Shown here in pieces: positions 3,001 through 18,111 of a stretch of 32,000 nucleotides of DNA. The notes under the pieces were generated by a model, which saw only the letters and a program-made list of their open reading frames with translations, had not been told where the DNA came from and made no database searches. The stretch is taken from the NCBI RefSeq assembly GCF_003010495.1, contig NZ_CP027570.1, positions 870,001-902,000 on the forward strand, given 5' to 3'. The position numbers and the translations under genes were made by a program. Each line of letters begins with the position of its first letter. The first letter of the stretch is position 1. This DNA comes from Megasphaera elsdenii DSM 20460 (GTDB lineage Bacteria; Bacillota; Negativicutes; Veillonellales; Megasphaeraceae).

Positions 3001-6000
3001 TTCTTGCCAATGGTATTGGTCATGTTATCTGTCGTAGTGTTGGTGATGTTCTTGGCGTTGTTGCTCAAGGTTTCCGAAGCAATGTTAGCAATGTTCTTGG
3101 CATCGTTTGTAATACTTCCATTCTTAGCTGTATTAGTGATATTTTCCGAAGCTGTATTTTCGATATTTTTAGCAGTGTTGGAAATAGTACCGTTATTAGC
3201 TGTATTGGAAATATTTCCATTGGTCGATGTATTGGTAATGTTATTTGCTGCTTCATTGGAAATCGTATCCGATGCTTTATTGACCAATTTCTGAGCTTCG
3301 TTAGTGATAGTACCCTGTTTTGCCGTATTGGTAATATCCGTCGTAGTCTGGGCGGAAGAAGTCGTGTTGGTTCCATCGGTGACTTCGCTGGTGATGTTAT
3401 CTACCTTCTGATCTACCTTGGAGAATACCGTATCAGACGAATTAATCTGATTCAGGATTTCATTGACACGCTGCTGGAACGTCGAGGTCTTACCTTCCTT
3501 ATCTTGGAGGACACTACTGGATTTCGTTGCACTCTGAGTTGCTGTATTGGTGTTACTATCTTTATCCTTCAGTGTGCTCTGTGACTGAGTAGATGTCTGT
3601 GTAGACAGGTTGCTGTTCTTTTCAGAATCGATAACCTTGGACGTTACATCGTTGCCTTCTACAGTCAAAGTACTCTTGTTCCAGTTACCATCTGCATCGG
3701 TAGATTTCGCCCATGTAGAAGTGCCGTTTTCATCATAATCAATGGCACTTTCTTTTTCACTGCCATCTTTCGTGCTGGTAGCTTTCTTATAGGACGTGAT
3801 TTCACCGGCTGCCACTTTCGTGCTGGCCGTTACGTTGTTGTCACCTACAATACCATTCTTGGTCAGGTCGATTTCATCCACATTCAGCTTGCCATTGACC
3901 GTTAAGTCACCGCCGATGGTGGCATTGCCGCTGGTGGTGATGGTTTCAGCGCTCAGGTTCTTCACACCGGTGAGGTTGCCATTCTGCATAGTTGCCGTGC
4001 CATCAGAGATGCTCTTACCCTGGATAGCGCCGCCGGCGGTCAGGTCACCGGTAATGGTGGCGCTGCCTGCTGTGAGAGCGCCCTGGATGGAAGCGCTGGC
4101 TCCCGTAATGGCGCCGCCTGCGTGGATATCACCCACTGCAGAGATGTTGCCTGTGGAAGTTACGGTGCCGCCGGTAATGGTACCGCTGGTATTGATGTTG
4201 CCATTGGTAATGGTAGCAATCCCATCGGTCAGGGTCTTGCCGGTTACTGTTCCGTTGCTCATGGAAGCACCCTTACCGTCGGTTACTGTTTCGCCGGTGA
4301 TAGTTGCCTTAGAAGTGACATTTCCATTTTCATCCACGGTGAAAGCCCCGTTGGCCCCTTTGATCTTGCCGTCAGCGCTCATAGCTGCTTTGGCTTCGCT
4401 ATAGGTATCGCCGCCGGTGTAGACACCGTCTTTATCCACCACCGTGCTGTTGGTGCCAACCTTGATTCCATTTTCGTTCATGGTGATCTGGTTGTCCTTG
4501 CCCTTGTTCAGGATCATTTCATTGGCATCGGTCTTGGAAGTGGTCACCATACCGTCATCAGCCACCGTCGTGGTGTTCTTTTGCAGCACGTTGTCTTCGC
4601 TCAGGCTCAGGCCGCTGTTCACGGCTTCCGCCAGTTTTTTATCAGCCCCGATGCGGGCTTCTTTTTCGGCGGCGTCGGCTGCGTTCAGAGCCGCAAACCC
4701 ATTGGCCATATTGGTATTGATGGTATTGAACCCATCCACCATATTCTGGTTGACCTGTTCAATGACCTTGTCTTGGGCTGCATCGGCACCGATCCGGGCT
4801 GACGTTTCCTTAGCAAGGGCCGCATCGAGATTAGTTACGTTTTCACCGATGGTTTTGGCCGCTTTCACAATGGCCCCATCCTGTACGGTGGCATCGGTCT
4901 TGCTCACATAATTGTCAGAAGTCTGTTTTTCCAGATATTCTTTCACATTGGTGATACGTTCGTTCAGAGCTGTATCGCCAGCTTCACGAGCAGCCGTTTC
5001 CGTATTGAGGTCACTTTGCAACTGATTCGTCGTTTCGTGAATCGCATTTGCTTCGTTTGTAATGCGTTCGTTCAGTTCATTATCGGCCGCCTCACGAGCA
5101 GTCGTTTCCGTATTCAGGTCATCCTGCAATTTATTCGTGGTTTCGTGGATTGCATTGGCTTCGTTCGTAATCCGTTCATTCAGTTCATTGTCTTTAGCTT
5201 CACGAGCCGCAGCTTCGTTATTAATATTGGTCTGCAGCTGTTTATCCGCATTTTCCAGATTGGTAACCGAATATTTGCGCTTCCGTGCTTCTTCCTCAAT
5301 GGCATCGGCATTGGCTTTGGCTTGCGTATCGAGGGCAACGATATTTTCGCCTACCGTATTGCCGGCCGTTACATAATTCCCGCTGATAAGGGTATTATCC
5401 ACGACGCCCTGCATGCCGACGACTTTATTTTTAGCGGTAATATTGGTCTGGGAAACGATTTCGTTACCGTTGATGGTAGACTGGGAAGTCAAGGTACCTT
5501 TGACCAGAGCATTGCCATCCACGTTCAGGTTGCCACGGCTGTTCAGGCTGCCCGCATTGACGGCACCGCCTACATTGGCGTTGTGGCCTACGCTGATAGA
5601 ATTGGTCACCCTGGCAGAGCCGGCAGTGAGTTTATCGCTTACATCGACAGAAGCGGCGCTGATATTGCCCGTAGCGTCGATGCTGCCCGTGGAAATGGCA
5701 TTGCCTTTAATGGTGGTAGAGGACGAAGAAGTTCCATCATTATAAGTAAAGGTTGTCCCGGTCGATTTAGCAGTAGCAACCTGGGAATATTCTCCTGCAG
5801 TATCTCCCGCAGTATCAATAATCTGTCCATTTGAAGATGTACTGGAAATGTCATTAGTTGCCTTGCTCACAATCGCTCCAGTTCTGGCGCGATATTCTGT
5901 ATAAGCTGTACCGCCATCATTGGCAAGTCCTGCCGCCTCATTATTGACTACACCAATCTGTGCTCCGCTTCCATTGACCTGAAGAGTTGCGCTATACTGA

Positions 6001-9234: not shown

Positions 9235-9240
9235 GGAAAT

Positions 9241-9295
9241 CTTCACATTTTCTTCACATTTCCTCCACATCTTTTTCGCACGTCTCTGGTATAGT
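9241..9295 (+). promoter_or_regulatory. Three phased 11-bp direct repeats plus an extended -10; candidate response-regulator-activated promoter
   Basis: The repeats are cttcacatttt (9241), cttcacatttc (9252) and ctccacatctt (9263). TGgTATAGT lies at 9287..9295. There is no recognisable -35; the third repeat occupies that position. Confidence 0.55.
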
Positions 9296-9333: not shown

Positions 9334-9633
9334 ATGATGAAGAAAAAAATCCTAGCCGGATTGGCGGCACTCGTCGTAATTGCCGGTTTTTCCGCCTTTG
9401 CAGCCACACCAGCTGCTTTAGAAGGTTCATCGTCAGGGACTTACGGCTCAGGTTATACATGTTATGACAACGGTAACGGGTATTGCCGGGGGCCGCAGGC
9501 CTGCTATGATGACCACGATAACTGCTATACTGGAAATGGTTATTGCCAGGGACCGCGCCGCGGCTGCCGGGCCGATGGCCAGCGCGGCTGTCAGGGCCGT
9601 CAAGATTGCCCTGCCTATAGCGAACAACAGTAA
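9334..9633 (+). CDS. Secreted cysteine-rich mini-protein (99 aa, 8 Cys in the mature part), uncharacterised
   Basis: SD aaggagg precedes the start. The Sec signal peptide is MMKKKILAGLAALVVIAGFSAFA. There is an internal duplication, CYDNGNGYCRGPQAC / CYTGNGYCQGPRRGC. Confidence 0.7.
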   Translation: MMKKKILAGLAALVVIAGFSAFAATPAALEGSSSGTYGSGYTCYDNGNGYCRGPQACYDDHDNCYTGNGYCQGPRRGCRADGQRGCQGRQDCPAYSEQQ

Positions 9634-9661
9634 GCCGTTCTAATCAAAGGGGGAAAACAAT

Positions 9662-10279
9662 ATGGTAATGACTCACTACATGGAACTCTTATCGCTCCAT
9701 GAACCTTGGTTCTTGATTCTCTTCATGCTGGTACCGATGGTATTGGCTGAAACGATTTTAGCGTCTGGTGCTTTTTCCTTGCTCTACAAGGACAGCCGCA
9801 GTGAAAAATGGGACAGCCTGAGCCACGTCTGCGGACTCATCTTAGGCGTCTTCTTCATTGTAGCTACGGTATACATCGTCACATCCTATGTGCCGACTAT
9901 CCAGTGGCGCGGCCCGATTGATTATATTTCTATTTGGGCTTATGTCTTAGGCGTCATCCCAGCCGTCCTCATCCTCTTGCAGGAATTGGGCATTATCTTT
10001 AAGAGCTCCGATTCGACGGCCAAGATCAAGAAACACATCGTCCTCATGATTCTCTTCGTCCTGTTCACGCACTTAGCCATGGTCTTCGGCATGGCTGACC
10101 CACAGCTCGCAGGTTACGTTCCGCCGAAACAGAACAACATGCAGATGCAGATGAACGGCAATATGCCCATGGACCACAGTCAGATGGACCATAGCCAGAT
10201 GAACCATGACCAAATGAACGGTCAAATGAATGGCCAGATGAATAACAATAACGGCCAGATGGACCACAGTAAGATGTAA
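9662..10279 (+). CDS. 4-TM membrane protein with a C-terminal Met/His/Gln-rich tail, uncharacterised
   Basis: Four hydrophobic segments are present. The last 46 aa (10139..10276) contain 12 Met and 4 His (MQMQMNGNMPMDHSQMDHSQMNHDQM...). SD aggggga lies upstream, and the gene starts 28 bp after the Cys-rich gene. Confidence 0.7.
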   Translation: MVMTHYMELLSLHEPWFLILFMLVPMVLAETILASGAFSLLYKDSRSEKWDSLSHVCGLILGVFFIVATVYIVTSYVPTIQWRGPIDYISIWAYVLGVIPAVLILLQELGIIFKSSDSTAKIKKHIVLMILFVLFTHLAMVFGMADPQLAGYVPPKQNNMQMQMNGNMPMDHSQMDHSQMNHDQMNGQMNGQMNNNNGQMDHSKM

Positions 10280-10466: not shown

Positions 10467-12364
10467 ATCGAGTAGGAGGGATTTCTGAGTAGAAATCCCG
10501 ACCTCTCACACCACCGTGCGTACCGTTCGGTACACGGCGGTTTCCTAGTTTTCGCATACTTGCTTGTAATAGCTCGTCATGGTTATGTAGCCAAGGCGGG
10601 CTATTTCTTTATTCGTAAGAACTGAGTTCAGCATTGCCGCTGCTCGCCACGGACCTTTTCGGCAGTTAGCCATTTCCAACACTACCCACTTGGGCGCGCC
10701 GTATTGGCTTATCATCCGGTGTTTCGTCCGTACCTTCTTCCATTGTTTCCAGTATATGGTTCGTATTTTGCGTCGAATCCATCTGTCAATTTGAATTAGC
10801 AGTTCCTTCATATTCGCTAGTTTAAAGTAATTCACCCATCCCTTTATGAATCGTTTCAATAGAAGGGCTCTCACTTCGTTTCCTTTTCCATTGCTTCGTT
10901 TCAATATAAACCGCAAACGGTCTTTCATCTTAGTAATGGATTTCGGATGCACCCGGAGTCGGCATTTTCCATTCTTTCGGTAGAAGCCATATCCCAGATA
11001 TTTAACATAGCGGATGTGGGCTACGTGCGTCTTATTTCGATTCACCTTGAGAAATAATTTCTTCTCAATATATCGAGTGATGCTTTCCAAGGTCCTTTCG
11101 GCACTTCTTCTGCTTTTGCAGAGTATCATGCAGTCATCTGCATAGCGGACAAATTTATGTCCGCGCCGTTCCAGCTCCTTATCCAGCTCATTCAGCATGA
11201 TGTTACTCAAGAGCGGACTCAATGGCCCTCCTTGGGGAACCCCCTGTTCACTTCGTTCGAACATCCCATGCCGGATAACACCAGCATGGAGATATTGGTG
11301 TATCAGCGAGATGACCCGGCCGTCTTTTACGCTCCTTGACAGAACTTCTATCAATTTGCTTTGGCAGACATTGTCGAAAAATTTCTCCAAGTCCATGTCT
11401 ACGACGTAGACATAGCCCTCATCTGCATAGGCCTGGCATTGTTTCAACGCATCGTGGGCGCCCCGTTTGGGACGGAACCCGAAACTGCTATCTGAAAACT
11501 GTGGCTCGTAGATAGGCACAAGAACCTGCGTAATCGCCTGTTGTATCATGCGGTCTACGACCGTAGGGATTCCTAATTTCCGGAATTTCCCTTTTTCCTC
11601 TTTGGGTATTTCAACCCGACGGACTGGCTGGGGCTTATATTTCCCATTCCGTATTTGCTGAAGGAGGTCCAGGCGATGTTCCCGCAGGTAGGGTAGAAGT
11701 TCATCTACACTCATCCTGTCGACCCCGCCGGTTCCTCGATTAGACTTTACCTTCTTATAGGCACCATTTAAGTTGTCTCGTGATAAAATCTGCTTCAACA
11801 GACTGTCCGCTGGCAAGCTTGCAATGATGTCGTTGTGTTCAGCAATCCTCGCATGGGCAGACGCTTCCACATATCCCGGTTGTTCCGCAACCTCTTTTTG
11901 TGGACAGCCTTCTTGATGAAGTTTTCTGTCTTTCATTCCATGATTGGTTACTTTCATTAACTAACATCTCCTAGGATTCGGCCCTTTCCTCATGGTCTAT
12001 AGCCCATAAGGTACTATGGCCTCGGCTGACTCCTCATGATAAATCTTATTTCAACCATGATGTCCAATCTATATGGCACCATCATGTCCATGAGGCCTCC
12101 CCGGGTAAGAACGCACTCTTTCTCTCCATGTGTCTGCCACATCTACTATTCATGGTTCCGTGTAGCTATGGGACTTCAACCTGTTAGGCGGCCTTATCCC
12201 CATGACTAGCCTTATGTGATTTCTGTTCGTCAGACCAGAGATTTGCCTCGACCTTCCTTCAGATTCCATCTCACGATGGACACCCTTGGTTCTGGCTATA
12301 GCCTTCCCGCTACCGGGCGGCTTAGGGACTTTCACCCATTAGAGTGCGCCCATGCCGGGCGCAC
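10467..12364 (-). mobile_element. Group II intron, bacterial class C (IIC), apparently full length (~1.9 kb)
   Basis: The 5' end is GUGCGCC (complement of 12364 downward), immediately after terminator hairpin+UUUUAG. The 5' ribozyme portion is compact, about 407 nt (11958..12364). A domain V-like hairpin ccgccgtgtaccGAACggtacgcacggtgg lies at 10511..10543. A domain VI hairpin (10472..10506) has a bulged A 7 nt from the ..CGAU 3' end. The encoded RT/maturase has no endonuclease domain. Confidence 0.8.
10545..11957 (-). CDS. Group II intron reverse transcriptase/maturase (no En domain)
   Basis: RT motifs are present: RKLGIPTVVDRMIQQA, FGFRPKRGAHDA, QGGPLSPLLSNI and the YADD box VRYADDCMILC. 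The maturase X region contains GWVNYF. The ORF ends directly before domain V. Confidence 0.92.
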   Translation of the reverse strand: MKVTNHGMKDRKLHQEGCPQKEVAEQPGYVEASAHARIAEHNDIIASLPADSLLKQILSRDNLNGAYKKVKSNRGTGGVDRMSVDELLPYLREHRLDLLQQIRNGKYKPQPVRRVEIPKEEKGKFRKLGIPTVVDRMIQQAITQVLVPIYEPQFSDSSFGFRPKRGAHDALKQCQAYADEGYVYVVDMDLEKFFDNVCQSKLIEVLSRSVKDGRVISLIHQYLHAGVIRHGMFERSEQGVPQGGPLSPLLSNIMLNELDKELERRGHKFVRYADDCMILCKSRRSAERTLESITRYIEKKLFLKVNRNKTHVAHIRYVKYLGYGFYRKNGKCRLRVHPKSITKMKDRLRFILKRSNGKGNEVRALLLKRFIKGWVNYFKLANMKELLIQIDRWIRRKIRTIYWKQWKKVRTKHRMISQYGAPKWVVLEMANCRKGPWRAAAMLNSVLTNKEIARLGYITMTSYYKQVCEN

Positions 12365-12366
12365 CT

Positions 12367-12402
12367 AAAAGGGCTTGTCGCACGTGCGACAAGCCCTTTT
12401 TT
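12367..12402. terminator. Bidirectional intrinsic terminator; 5' exon/target of the IIC intron
   Basis: AAAA, then the perfect 26-nt palindrome gggcttgtcgcacgtgcgacaagccc, then TTTTTT. Confidence 0.8.
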
Positions 12403-12436
12403 CATGCTATAATTGATATAAAAAGGGGGAAACACG

Positions 12437-12721
12437 ATGGATTTAGCGCAGCCGATTTTAGAGGGCATCATCGTTCTGGCTAAACAATACGATATTCAAA
12501 AGGTCATTCTTTTTGGCTCCCGTGCCCGTGGCGATAATTGGGAACGCAGCGATATTGACCTGGCTGTCTGCGGTGGAGATGTCACGCGGTTTTCTCTTGA
12601 TGTCGATGAGGTCATCCCGACACTGCTCATGTTCGATGTCGTCGATTTAGATGAACCGGTCCAGCCTGAACTGCGAGCCGCTATCCAACGGGAAGGAGTC
12701 GTTATATATGAAAAAGTATGA
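12437..12721 (+). CDS. Minimal nucleotidyltransferase (MNT/MntA-like antitoxin, HI0073-type)
   Basis: The sequence LFGSRARGDNWERSDIDLAV matches the GSxxxG...DxD NTase motif. The 94-aa protein overlaps the downstream HEPN gene by 14 nt. An extended -10 TGcTATAAT lies at 12405..12413. Confidence 0.8.
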   Translation: MDLAQPILEGIIVLAKQYDIQKVILFGSRARGDNWERSDIDLAVCGGDVTRFSLDVDEVIPTLLMFDVVDLDEPVQPELRAAIQREGVVIYEKV

Positions 12722-13097
12722 GAATTTCTGCAAAGCCTTGAATAACCTCAAAGAAATACAAAAAGAAATACCACCTTATTCGACGGTCGTCCAAACGGGA
12801 ATGGTTTCTCTTTATGAAATCTGTTTTGAACAGGCTTGGAAAGCCATGAAAGAAGTATTGGAAAATAATGGCTATAGCCAGCATAAGATAGGGTCATCGC
12901 GGACAATTATCAAAATGGCTTATCAGGCAAATCTGATTGACGATGAGGATTGCTGGCTGGAGGCCTTGCGGGACCGGAACAATGTAGTCAATTCTTATAA
13001 TGAAGAAATTGCCAATAATATCATTAAAGACAGCAAAGAGAAGTACATTACCATGTTTGAAGGGCTGCAAAAGGAAATAGAAAAAAATTGGTTGTGA
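12708..13097 (+). CDS. HEPN-domain protein (HI0074 / nucleotidyltransferase substrate-binding family, HepT-like) with an altered Rx4H motif
   Basis: The start was moved to ATG 12708 (MKKYENFCKAL...), which fits the family length of about 130 aa. The motif region reads RDRNNVVNSYNEE, where the family normally has RNxxxHxY. Confidence 0.7.
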   Translation: MKKYENFCKALNNLKEIQKEIPPYSTVVQTGMVSLYEICFEQAWKAMKEVLENNGYSQHKIGSSRTIIKMAYQANLIDDEDCWLEALRDRNNVVNSYNEEIANNIIKDSKEKYITMFEGLQKEIEKNWL

Positions 13098-13119
13098 AGA
13101 TGATAGGGAGGTGGATTTT

Positions 13120-13827
13120 TTGCGAACGAATTCGATTTTAATCGTCGATGATGATGAAAAGCTTTGTGCTTTGTTGAAATCTTATTTTGAGCAGGAACAG
13201 TTCATCGTCTATGTGGCTCACGATGGCATGACGGCGTTGCATACGCTGCGCAACCAGAAACCGCAGATTATGCTCCTCGATTTGATGATGCCCGGCATGG
13301 ATGGCTTCGAGGTCTGCCGCCGTATCCGTCAGTTCAGCGATATTCCCATTATCTTCTTGTCGGCCAAGGACGATGAAACGGACCGCCTAGTCGGTCTTAA
13401 TATGGGCGGCGACGATTATGTGACCAAGCCTTTTCACGTCAAAGAAGTTATTGCCCGCGTTTACAGCCTGCTGCGGCGGACCCGCGGCGAAGTACTGCAG
13501 AAGACGACGTCGTATACCATACGGGATTTGACCATCGACAAGGAAAAGTTTACTGTCTTGAAAGGAAATCAGCCGGTGCCCCTGACGCCGACGGAGTTCA
13601 ATCTCCTCGAAGTCTTGGCTTCGGCTCCGGACAGGGTGTTCAGCCGCATGCAGCTCATGGACAAAGTACAGGGCGGCTATGGCTTTGAAGGTTATGAACG
13701 GACTATCGACACGCATATCCGCAACCTGCGCAAGAAGCTGGAAGCCGACCCGGCCCATCCGACGTATATCCTGACCGTATACGGCATCGGTTATAAATTC
13801 GACGGAGGGAATCATGAAGAAAGCTGA
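13120..13827 (+). CDS. OmpR/PhoB-family response regulator
   Basis: The receiver domain shows ILIVDDDE...LLDLMMPGMDG...KPF, and the winged-helix output shows LTPTEFNLLEVL...GIGYKF. The start is probably TTG 13120, 8 nt after AGGGAGG. The track's GTG 13111 abuts the SD. Confidence 0.9.
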   Translation: MRTNSILIVDDDEKLCALLKSYFEQEQFIVYVAHDGMTALHTLRNQKPQIMLLDLMMPGMDGFEVCRRIRQFSDIPIIFLSAKDDETDRLVGLNMGGDDYVTKPFHVKEVIARVYSLLRRTRGEVLQKTTSYTIRDLTIDKEKFTVLKGNQPVPLTPTEFNLLEVLASAPDRVFSRMQLMDKVQGGYGFEGYERTIDTHIRNLRKKLEADPAHPTYILTVYGIGYKFDGGNHEES

Positions 13828-14927
13828 CAGCATCGTCATCCGCCTGACCGGGATGGTCTTTATCCTCATCTTCCTGACCATCGCCATTTTGCTCATCTTG
13901 GTCAATAACCAGATGGACAACCATTTTTCCCAGTATTTAACGAATATGTCCCAGATGATGGGCAATGGACATCAAGGCATGGGCATGATGCACGGCATGA
14001 GGCATGGGCCGGCGGAAATTACCTATATCTCGGCCGTCCACCGGTCGTTGCTCTGGGTCGGCCTGGTCATGCTGGCCGTCAGCGTCACCATCAGTTATTT
14101 TATCGTCCGGGAAATCATGCGTCCCTTGTCAGCTCTGACCGACGCCGTGCAAAAAGTCAAGGCCGGTACGTATGGCCAGACGGTTCCCGTCGAACGCCGT
14201 GATGAAGTCGGGACCCTGACCGAGACTTTCAACGACATGTCCCAGGAACTGGCGAAAAACGATAAGATGCGGCGCCGTCTCTTTGCCAACATCGCTCACG
14301 AACTGCGGACGCCCCTGGCCATCTTGCAGGGCAATCTGGAAGGGATGATCGACGATGTTATCCCGACGGATAAGAAGGTCCTCTTGTCCATGGAAGATGA
14401 AACCTTGCGCATGGGCCGCCTCATCCAGGACTTGCGGGACTTGTCACTGGCGGAAATTAATGAGCTGACGCTCCATAAAGCACCGCATGATATCAACGTT
14501 CTCCTGGAACGGGCCGTCAGTATGCTCCAGCCTTTATGTGACGAAAAATCCCTGGCCGTCCATTTGGACTTGGCCAGGGATTTGCCGAAGGTATCTATCG
14601 ATGTGGACCGTATCAATCAGGTCATTTATAATCTGCTCAACAACGCCATCCGCTATATCGAAGCGGGCTGTACGATTACCGTTTCGACCTTAGCCGTCAC
14701 CGTGAAGGGACAGCCTTATGTGCAGGTTCAGATTGCCGATACGGGCAGCGGCATTGCGCCGGAAGATTTACAGCATATCTTCCAGTACTTTTACCGCAGC
14801 GAAAAATCGCGGAACCGCAAGAGCGGCGGCAGTGGTATCGGCCTGGCTCTGGCTCAGCAGTTCGTCCGCAGTCATGGCGGCAGGATATGGGCGGACAGTG
14901 AAGTCGGCAGGGGGACGACGTTTACCT

Positions 14928-17786
<2,859 letters not shown>

Positions 17787-17790
17787 TCCT

Positions 17791-18111
17791 TTATTTCATG
17801 AGTTTTTGTAAAGTGCAGACGAGTTCATCGACGACTTCGTCTTTGCCTTCACGGATGTCGTGGACGACGCAGGACTTGATGTGCTGGCCCAGGAGCTCCT
17901 TATTGAAAGAATTCAAGGCCGACTGGATGGCACTGACCTGAGTCAGGATATCAATACAATAGCGATCGTCTTCGACCATTTTTTTCACGCCCCGTACTTG
18001 GCCTTCGATGCGGTTCAGACGGGAAATGAGTGATTTATACTCTTTGCCCTCTTTATTGCGATACTTATGCTTTTCCGTATCGCAGCAAGGACAGACTTTC
18101 TTTTCGCCCAT
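17791..18111 (-). CDS. csoR: CsoR-family copper-sensing transcriptional repressor
   Basis: The family pattern LxRLxRIEGQxRGxxxM and the C..H..C ligand set (RYCIDILTQ ... HIKSC) are present. The gene lies immediately upstream of copA with a 4-bp gap. It has an N-terminal CPCC extension. Confidence 0.9.
   Translation of the reverse strand: MGEKKVCPCCDTEKHKYRNKEGKEYKSLISRLNRIEGQVRGVKKMVEDDRYCIDILTQVSAIQSALNSFNKELLGQHIKSCVVHDIREGKDEVVDELVCTLQKLMK

Follow-up and report, generated by a model that had tools for sequence, protein, structure and literature searches.

A histidine kinase with a short methionine- and histidine-rich outside segment, a candidate periplasmic Cu(I)/Ag(I) sensor in Megasphaera elsdenii and other Negativicutes

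The sensor kinase and its outside segment

We analyzed a stretch of 32,000 nucleotides from Megasphaera elsdenii DSM 20460 (contig NZ_CP027570.1, positions 870,001 to 902,000 of the forward strand), which is called the window here and to which the coordinates below refer. It carries a two-component system, made up of a response regulator (RR) and a sensor histidine kinase (HK), in which the kinase has only 48 aa between its two transmembrane (TM) helices. These residues are rich in methionine and histidine, and a preliminary description of this DNA, made from its letters alone, had proposed that they sense Cu(I)/Ag(I). The 3' end of the regulator gene overlaps the start of the kinase gene, and RR adjoins HK in all the relatives that were examined. 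The features of the pair are the following:

13111-13827, forward strand: response regulator of the OmpR/PhoB type, with the receiver at residues 9-117, including D57, and a winged helix at residues 154-230
13814-14962, forward strand: sensor histidine kinase of 382 aa, consisting of TM1, the 48-aa outside segment, TM2, HAMP, HisKA and HATPase_c
13832-13903, forward strand: TM1, about residues 7-30, after the basic N-terminus MKKADSIVIR (from hydropathy)
13904-13954, forward strand: helical extension of TM1 into the periplasm, residues 31-47, with invariant Q33, M34, F38 and Y41 (from the alignment and the predicted structure)
13955-14008, forward strand: disordered Met/Gly/His tip, residues 48-65, MMGNGHQGMGMMHGMRHG (from low confidence in the predicted structure)
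14009-14047, forward strand: helix into TM2, residues 66-78, with invariant E68, H76 and S78 and near-invariant V75 (from the alignment and the predicted structure)
14048-14107, forward strand: TM2, about residues 79-98, which runs on into HAMP (from hydropathy and the predicted structure)

In the cytoplasmic part of the kinase the HAMP domain spans residues 96-146, HisKA residues 152-212 and HATPase_c residues 263-376, and the phospho-acceptor, H162, is encoded at 14297-14299. Nucleotides 13904-14047 translate exactly to residues 31-78, NNQMDNHFSQYLTNMSQMMGNGHQGMGMMHGMRHGPAEITYISAVHRS, and these 48 aa contain 8 Met, 5 His and 6 Gly. In the preliminary description 8 Met and 4 His were counted in 38 aa, which is correct for the first 38 aa of the segment, and the motif quoted there begins at residue 45. 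Because the N-terminus is basic (K2, K3 and R10) and because HAMP and the kinase core must be cytoplasmic, residues 31-78 should be extracytoplasmic, and since Megasphaera is a diderm they should lie in the periplasm.

The kinase fell below the cutoff of every NCBIfam equivalog, the top one being BaeS with a score of 236 against a cutoff of 500. It also scored under the curated cutoffs of the CusS-type models, namely, TIGR01386 (cztS_silS_copS; 156.8 versus 292.55) and NF007345 (130.9 versus 423). The name WalK, which comes with this kinase from some sources, is unsupported because no NCBIfam equivalog cutoff was reached. Among solved structures the kinase core is nearest to the VicK, SrrB, WalK and AdeS types, with a score of 196 bits for VicK-like, and when the solved structures were searched with the sensor alone there was no match even at E = 10.

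The composition of the outside segment is rare. The binomial probability that 48 residues contain 8 or more Met is 4e-5, and a run of 48 aa with no fewer than 8 Met and no fewer than 4 His was found in only two of the 3411 open reading frames (ORFs) of at least 150 aa in the 2.48-Mb genome. One of these two is the kinase and the other, 4 kb upstream, codes for the DUF6803 protein at 9662-10279, which is the predicted target of the system as described below. The other HisKA kinases of the genome (n=6) have loops of 122-166 aa with 2-4% Met. Thus, the sensor and its predicted target share a Met/His composition that is seen in no other ORF of at least 150 aa in this genome. That the composition recurs in the tail of the 9662-10279 protein had been pointed out before and is borne out by the count, 13 Met and 4 His in the 62 aa of the C-terminal tail (residues 144-205; 10091-10276). 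By the positive-inside rule this tail is placed in the periplasm.

The structure of the sensor was predicted with AlphaFold2 (AF2) on the 47-sequence alignment of the family, and the mean predicted local distance difference test score (pLDDT) was 76.7. The model has a helix at residues 7-50, a disordered stretch at residues 48-65 where pLDDT is below 50, and a second helix at residues 66-116 that goes through TM2 into HAMP. The TM1 and TM2 helices each reach about 13-20 residues past the membrane. As modeled, the two helices form a hairpin whose Met/His tip is floppy, and the sensor is not a bare loop. The string of thioether and imidazole side chains that had been imagined earlier is replaced in this model by a hairpin that bears invariant Q33, M34, F38, Y41, E68 and H76 and ends in a disordered Met-rich tip.

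Conservation of the sensor in the Negativicutes

The short loop is kept in all Megasphaera orthologues down to 61% identity. A word-based search with residues 1-105 reached only Megasphaera, and a profile search of genomes was used for breadth. The profile of the first 107 residues matched 118 of the 301 genomes that were sampled across the class, and these represent 45 of 93 genera; none of the 45 sampled genomes of one family (f2) was matched. Related genomes are non-independent samples, and the counts given here and below are to be read as such. When 1.84 billion representatives were searched with a profile there were 75 matches only, many of them fragments. The named loci of the family come from Megasphaera, Acidaminococcus, Sporomusa, Pelosinus, Propionispira, Selenomonas, Dendrosporobacter and uncultured relatives.

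In the 47-sequence alignment, in which identity ranges from 41 to 96%, residues Q33, M34, F38, Y41, G65, E68, H76, S78 and L79 are invariant, and invariant positions in the outside segment are as numerous as in a catalytic motif. The patterns QM..F..Y in the first flank and MG.E..FL.SVH.SL in the second are invariant in 63 kinases, and the conserved residues lie on one face of each flanking helix. Between the flanks of these 63 relatives is a core of 10-31 aa whose sequence is free and whose chemistry is fixed, and the length of the whole outside segment across the family is 34-55 aa. The 63 cores have 22.7% Met, 9.0% His and 16.1% Gly, whereas the cytoplasmic part of the same proteins has 2.4%, 2.4% and 7.1%, respectively. 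At least one Met is present in each core, but His is absent from 8 of the 63. Residues H37 and M45 are conserved in Megasphaera and Acidaminococcus. In the Megasphaera cerevisiae type (L064 and L010, with the kinase at 3269-4393 of L010) the core is shortened and His-free, QMNMLIGMERMAKGPA. Conservation of the Met/His loop, which had been suggested as a check, is thus seen family-wide in the flanks and the composition of the 63 kinases. As to its chemistry, all cores are enriched in Met, and His, in which the Megasphaera tip is also rich, is dispensable in the tip.

A core of this kind could be a low-complexity linker that is tolerated between conserved helices, in which case sensing would take place in or at the membrane and the Met/His richness would have no sensing role. 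The free variation of the core in length and sequence, the lack of structure there in the AF2 model and the shortened, His-free core in Megasphaera cerevisiae are what would be expected of a linker. However, Met is about nine-fold enriched in all 63 cores despite free drift, and a neutral linker would not keep that. In addition, the same rare composition is found in the predicted targets, which are the DUF6803 tail, DUF2680 proteins and lipoproteins. We therefore consider it very improbable that the tip is only a linker.

The predicted operator and the gene neighborhood

The genes around the kinase in the window, and the site from which the regulator is predicted to act, are the following:

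9237-9295, forward strand: predicted operator and promoter, with four direct repeats 11 bp apart that run into the -35 position
9242, 9253, 9264 and 9275: the operator repeats TTCACA, TTCACA, TCCACA and TTCGCA, in this order
9334-9633, forward strand: secreted mini-protein with 8 Cys, encoded by the gene that opens the predicted target operon
9662-10279, forward strand: DUF6803 four-helix membrane protein, predicted target (PF20617, 196.6 bits)
10545-13097, both strands: later insertions between the target operon and the regulator genes, not in other Megasphaera species
10545-11957, reverse strand: group II intron reverse transcriptase
12437-13097, forward strand: MNT/HEPN pair
14928-18111, reverse strand: csoR-copA, convergent with the kinase gene, coding for a cytoplasmic sensor of Cu(I) and a P-type ATPase for Cu(I) export

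The repeats extend into the -35 position of an extended -10 element, TGgTATAGT, at 9287-9295. The three-repeat pattern occurs once in the 2.48-Mb genome, 5' of the Cys-rich/DUF6803 operon, and the operator is kept in M. massiliensis and in a Megasphaera of 67% identity while its flanks diverge. When 652 kb of family loci were scanned with (TTCACA-N5)x3, allowing up to 2 mismatches, there were 25 matches compared to 0 in shuffled sequence. All 25 are 34-112 bp upstream of, and co-directional with, genes for Cys-rich/DUF6803, DUF2680 or SHOCT-RR-HK. The variant TTCAYA adds sites in Pelosinus between csoR and RR-HK-copA, in Sporomusa, and in Selenomonas at the DUF6803 gene that is divergent from RR-HK. 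The family consensus is three or four TTCA(C/T)A repeats at 11-bp spacing, and in a set of 20 loci the repeats are also found 5' of a gene with an HMA domain and of a 97-aa Met-rich gene. This is strong comparative evidence that the family regulator would control the genes that are linked to the operator. In this genome the sole predicted target is the operon 9334-10279. No TTCACA operator was found in the window upstream of csoR-copA or of the regulator gene, and because there is no such site at csoR-copA these genes are presumably left to CsoR.

In the Megasphaera cerevisiae type loci L064 and L010 there is no DUF6803 gene 5' of RR-HK and no TTCACA operator with up to 2 mismatches. This lineage may be a case of natural decay of the circuit. 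A Megasphaera metagenome-assembled genome (L003, 5810-6092) has no DUF6803 either, yet phased repeats are kept at 5810-5848, and here they precede a 56-aa secreted peptide with the end GDWGRNHHRR.

Another promoter-like sequence is found among the insertions in the window. This extended -10 site at 12386-12413 is 5' of the MNT/HEPN pair, and the pair ends 13 bp ahead of the regulator gene. For these reasons the RR-HK genes of this strain may now be transcribed from the inserted cassette. Scans for consensus promoters and terminators were uninformative as to co-transcription of DUF6803 and RR-HK.

The gene orders in the family loci are the following:

Megasphaera: small secreted ORF, DUF6803, RR, HK, then convergent copA-csoR
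Pelosinus: csoR, operator, RR-HK-copA, same direction throughout
Locus L087: DUF6803-RR-HK-OEP-CusB-CusA
Sporomusa: cusB-cusA, Met-rich lipoprotein, RR-HK
Acidaminococcaceae: SHOCT-RR-HK-DUF6803, then csoR-copA
Selenomonas: DUF6803 divergent from RR-HK

The order in Megasphaera could be inherited synteny within one genus, but in the other genera the genes are arranged differently. Among the 41 named loci outside Megasphaera, CopA, CsoR or a CusA-type pump is present in 11, DUF6803 in 18, and secreted Met-rich proteins (DUF2680, GerD-like repeats and lipoproteins) in 7, and 12 loci have no gene of these kinds within 6 kb; DUF6803 is also present in most Megasphaera. Gene calls in these loci were greedy longest ORFs, by which overlapping regulator genes were missed and spurious ORFs are possible, and the neighbors were labeled by BLAST against reference proteins and a few Pfam and NCBIfam scans, not by full annotation. 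CopA of the window has one N-terminal and two C-terminal HMA domains. The resistance-nodulation-division (RND) pumps that were scanned (n=3) scored 1164-1172 bits on the CusA/CzcA model TIGR00914, which has a cutoff of 701. Compared to solved structures, the pump of locus L041 scored 803 bits with E. coli CusA and 715 bits with ZneA, and it retains the CusA-type TM4 motif (one Asp) together with all three Met columns at the Cu(I)/Ag(I) site. The proposal that the kinase senses Cu(I)/Ag(I) rests on this gene context, in which the family and its predicted regulon are repeatedly found beside csoR-copA and beside CusA-type RND pumps with the three-Met site.

The metal that is sensed might be another one, namely, Zn(II), Ni(II), Cd(II) or Pb(II), as with ZraS or CzcS, bound by His, Glu and Met ligands. 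Invariant E68 and H76 suit borderline divalent ions, and His/Gly/Met-rich motifs are also found in zinc-associated periplasmic proteins such as ZraP. On the other hand, Met makes up 23% of the cores and His only 9%, with 8 of 63 lacking His altogether, and thioethers favor Cu(I)/Ag(I). Moreover, the RND pump that was checked is of the CusA type with the Met triad kept and not of the DFG-DGA divalent type, and the P-type ATPases nearby are of the CopA type with CsoR. Sensing of one of these other metals is thus improbable.

Exposed Met clusters oxidize readily, and it could be argued that the kinase senses an oxidant by oxidation of Met to the sulfoxide, as E. coli HprS/HypV (YedV) does with hypochlorous acid (HOCl). 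HOCl-dependent signaling via Met residues has been described in YedV/HprS (bioRxiv 10.1101/2021.09.09.459708), and copper stress itself oxidizes periplasmic Met (PMC9302797). If this were the case a methionine-sulfoxide reductase (Msr) might be expected close by, but neither msrP, msrQ nor any other Msr gene was found among the labeled or recurrent neighbors of the family loci. The members of the regulon suggest metal handling, and all these bacteria live as strict anaerobes. The kinase core resembles HprS only distantly, its structure scoring 123 bits versus 196 for VicK-like. Oxidant sensing is, on this evidence, quite improbable.

The most constant neighbor of the kinase is DUF6803, whose tail is of like composition, and in Acidaminococcaceae and other loci Met/Gly-rich SHOCT proteins directly precede RR-HK behind the operator. 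These neighbors suggest that sensing could be indirect, the hairpin reading a partner protein or the state of the envelope as in CpxA-CpxP, ZraS-ZraP or BceS-BceAB, with the Met tip as a contact surface or linker. The candidates for such a partner would be DUF6803, the SHOCT membrane protein or a secreted Met-rich protein. The conserved helix faces resemble packing surfaces, and some of the family neighbors are of envelope type (LemA, NlpC/P60 and RseC), which would also fit. But no partner is universal, and in loci such as those of Pelosinus and Sporomusa the invariant residues and the Met-rich core are kept without DUF6803 or SHOCT nearby. Furthermore, M34, E68 and H76, which are invariant, are typical metal ligands. 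Indirect sensing is therefore unlikely in our view.

Several other small proteins are encoded next to the kinase genes. The SHOCT-domain small membrane proteins, with an N-terminus of the MMMGYGGGFGGFGMM type, are found between the operator and RR-HK in several lineages (L049 4882-5118, L051 6024-6263 and L077/L078 at about 5089-5262) and may be accessory proteins of the system. Secreted repeat proteins with MMKSPEMQ.AM-like repeats and a weak match to the Pfam GerD core (L043 8402-8863 and L045 5104-5535) adjoin the kinase pair and CusA-type pumps. Lipoproteins with GHEGxxMxxGDPMPMMKDM motifs and no Pfam match are encoded 3' of the CusA-type pump genes (L041 1-237, L049 14155-14403 and L043 9446-9901), which is the position that CusF has in E. 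coli.

Proposed mechanism and comparison with known sensors

From the sequence comparisons above we propose, with a probability of roughly 0.55, that the kinase is a periplasm-facing Cu(I)/Ag(I) sensor of minimal design that drives the Cys-rich/DUF6803 operon via its response regulator. Periplasmic Cu(I), the prevalent form for a strict anaerobe, would be caught by the thioether/imidazole tip, or by a membrane-proximal dimer site made of M34, H37, F38 and H76, or by both. Metal binding would reposition TM2 and HAMP, H162 would be autophosphorylated, and the phosphate would then pass to D57 of the OmpR-type regulator. The regulator would bind the four TTCACA repeats at 9242-9280, which would replace the -35 element, and the Cys-rich/DUF6803 operon would be activated. 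The DUF6803 tail, whose Met/His chemistry matches that of the sensor, would probably bind periplasmic copper or hand it on, and cytoplasmic copper would be dealt with separately by the adjacent CsoR-CopA.

Several findings weigh against this proposal. The functional evidence consists throughout of associations seen in related genomes, and the copper/silver part of the proposal rests on gene context. In 12 of the 41 loci outside Megasphaera there is no copper-linked neighbor within 6 kb. The kinases of Acidaminococcus (L032/L033 and L068/L071), which are the nearest outgroup and whose loops match those of Megasphaera in Met/His richness, are directly 3' of a PMCA-type calcium P-type ATPase (TIGR01517, 606 bits, above cutoff) and not of a copper gene. 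The full Met/His picture holds only for Megasphaera and Acidaminococcus, because H37 is Leu in most genera and there are the eight cores without His. The kinase core is closest to the VicK/SrrB/WalK type and not to CusS, and DUF6803 has no known function. Finally, the AF2 model is a monomer in which confidence in the loop is low, and so a metal site cannot be read from it.

We also put forward, as a tentative and rather doubtful extension, that the sensor and its targets form a circuit with matched ligands. Here the disordered tip, without a folded domain, would bind Cu(I) and induce DUF6803 or secreted proteins of the same Met/His sequence, and these would then compete for periplasmic Cu(I) and reset the sensor. 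A buffering feedback of this sort would be built into the whole family in diderm Firmicutes, and it would have evolved independently of CusS.

The copper-sensing two-component systems characterized so far are, to our knowledge, those of Proteobacteria, cyanobacteria and one actinobacterium, and we know of none in double-membraned Firmicutes. The gut and rumen genera Megasphaera, Selenomonas and Acidaminococcus meet copper-supplemented feed, and the system described here is a candidate for their missing regulator. If Cu(I) is sensed with about 50 outside residues, this kinase would be the smallest model of how metal binding at the surface moves HAMP, and it would suit peptide chemistry and nuclear magnetic resonance. 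The proposal also gives a first testable role and a regulator for DUF6803 and for the Met-rich DUF2680-type proteins. The sequence motif, the operator and the candidate regulon are defined and can be tested directly.

In intramembrane-sensing kinases of the BceS/LiaS type the loops are very short, and the kinases rely on an ABC transporter or on LiaF. Like them, the Megasphaera kinase has two TM helices, a small outside segment and no folded extracellular domain. Unlike them, its family has HAMP and an outside segment of 34-55 aa with invariant polar or ligand residues, and no ABC transporter was recurrent among the kinase neighbors. By these conserved outside residues and the lack of a recurrent ABC transporter, the kinase falls outside the BceS/LiaS type.

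Kinases that seem to come from other phyla and were also recovered by the profile search (P0160, P0177, P0180, P0183-P0185, P0189 and P0191) share a frame of F..YL, an MMGG-rich loop, (A/P)E..FL and SLW, and differ from the family in that they are without the invariant M34 and H76. In P0174 and P0197 a domain of about 100 aa is inserted into the same F..YL/SLW kinase frame. A short Met/Gly loop may therefore be a way of building sensors that is much more widespread. Met/Gly-tailed proteins of the DUF2680/YckD type are found behind the same operator in Sporomusa-type loci.

The Ag(I)/Cu(I) sites of E. coli CusS are H42, F43 and H176, in helices that continue into the membrane, and also a disordered Met/His loop, M133-M135 and the His residues in 138-149 (PMC10100754). 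In its sequence the Megasphaera kinase has possible counterparts of both elements, with H37-F38 after TM1 and H76 before TM2 for the first and the disordered Met/His tip for the second, although H37 is not family-wide. CusS controls an envelope copper system, and members of the Megasphaera family adjoin CusCBA-type pumps. Unlike CusS, however, the Megasphaera kinase is without the globular sensor domain of about 150 aa and has only 48 aa between the TM helices. Since the kinase scores below the cutoffs of the curated CusS-type models and its core is of another group, the likeness to CusS is probably functional and convergent and not one of membership.

A close parallel in design is CopRS of Corynebacterium glutamicum, which is required for copper resistance (Schelder et al. 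2011, PMC3140484). The kinase CopS has been shown genetically to respond to copper, and the ligands proposed for it are the 3 His and 2 Met of its periplasmic loop of 31 aa. Short-loop copper sensing, which the preliminary description had called apparently undescribed, was thus already known from CopS (PMC3140484). Both kinases have two TM helices, a short His/Met loop (31 versus 48 aa), HAMP-HisKA-HATPase and an OmpR-type partner, and the Megasphaera loop is far richer in Met, CopS being compared here by its published description. CopR binds TGAAGATTTgaTGAAGATTT, a repeat with an 11-bp period that is the only such site in the C. glutamicum genome (PMC3140484). The reverse complement of the proven CopR half-site TGAAGATTT is AAATCTTCA, which stands at 9237-9245, and the 11-bp period is common to the CopR site and the predicted Megasphaera operator. 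The first Megasphaera half-site agrees with the CopR reverse complement at 9 of 9 positions and the next two at 6 of 9 and 4 of 9. In both organisms there is a single genomic operator, predicted in Megasphaera, beside a copper ATPase locus. They differ in that C. glutamicum is a monoderm actinobacterium with two repeats and a regulon of a multicopper oxidase and CopB, whereas Megasphaera is a diderm Firmicute with three or four repeats and a predicted regulon of DUF6803 and a Cys-rich peptide. The family in the Negativicutes is probably an uncharacterized variant of the copper-responsive two-component systems.

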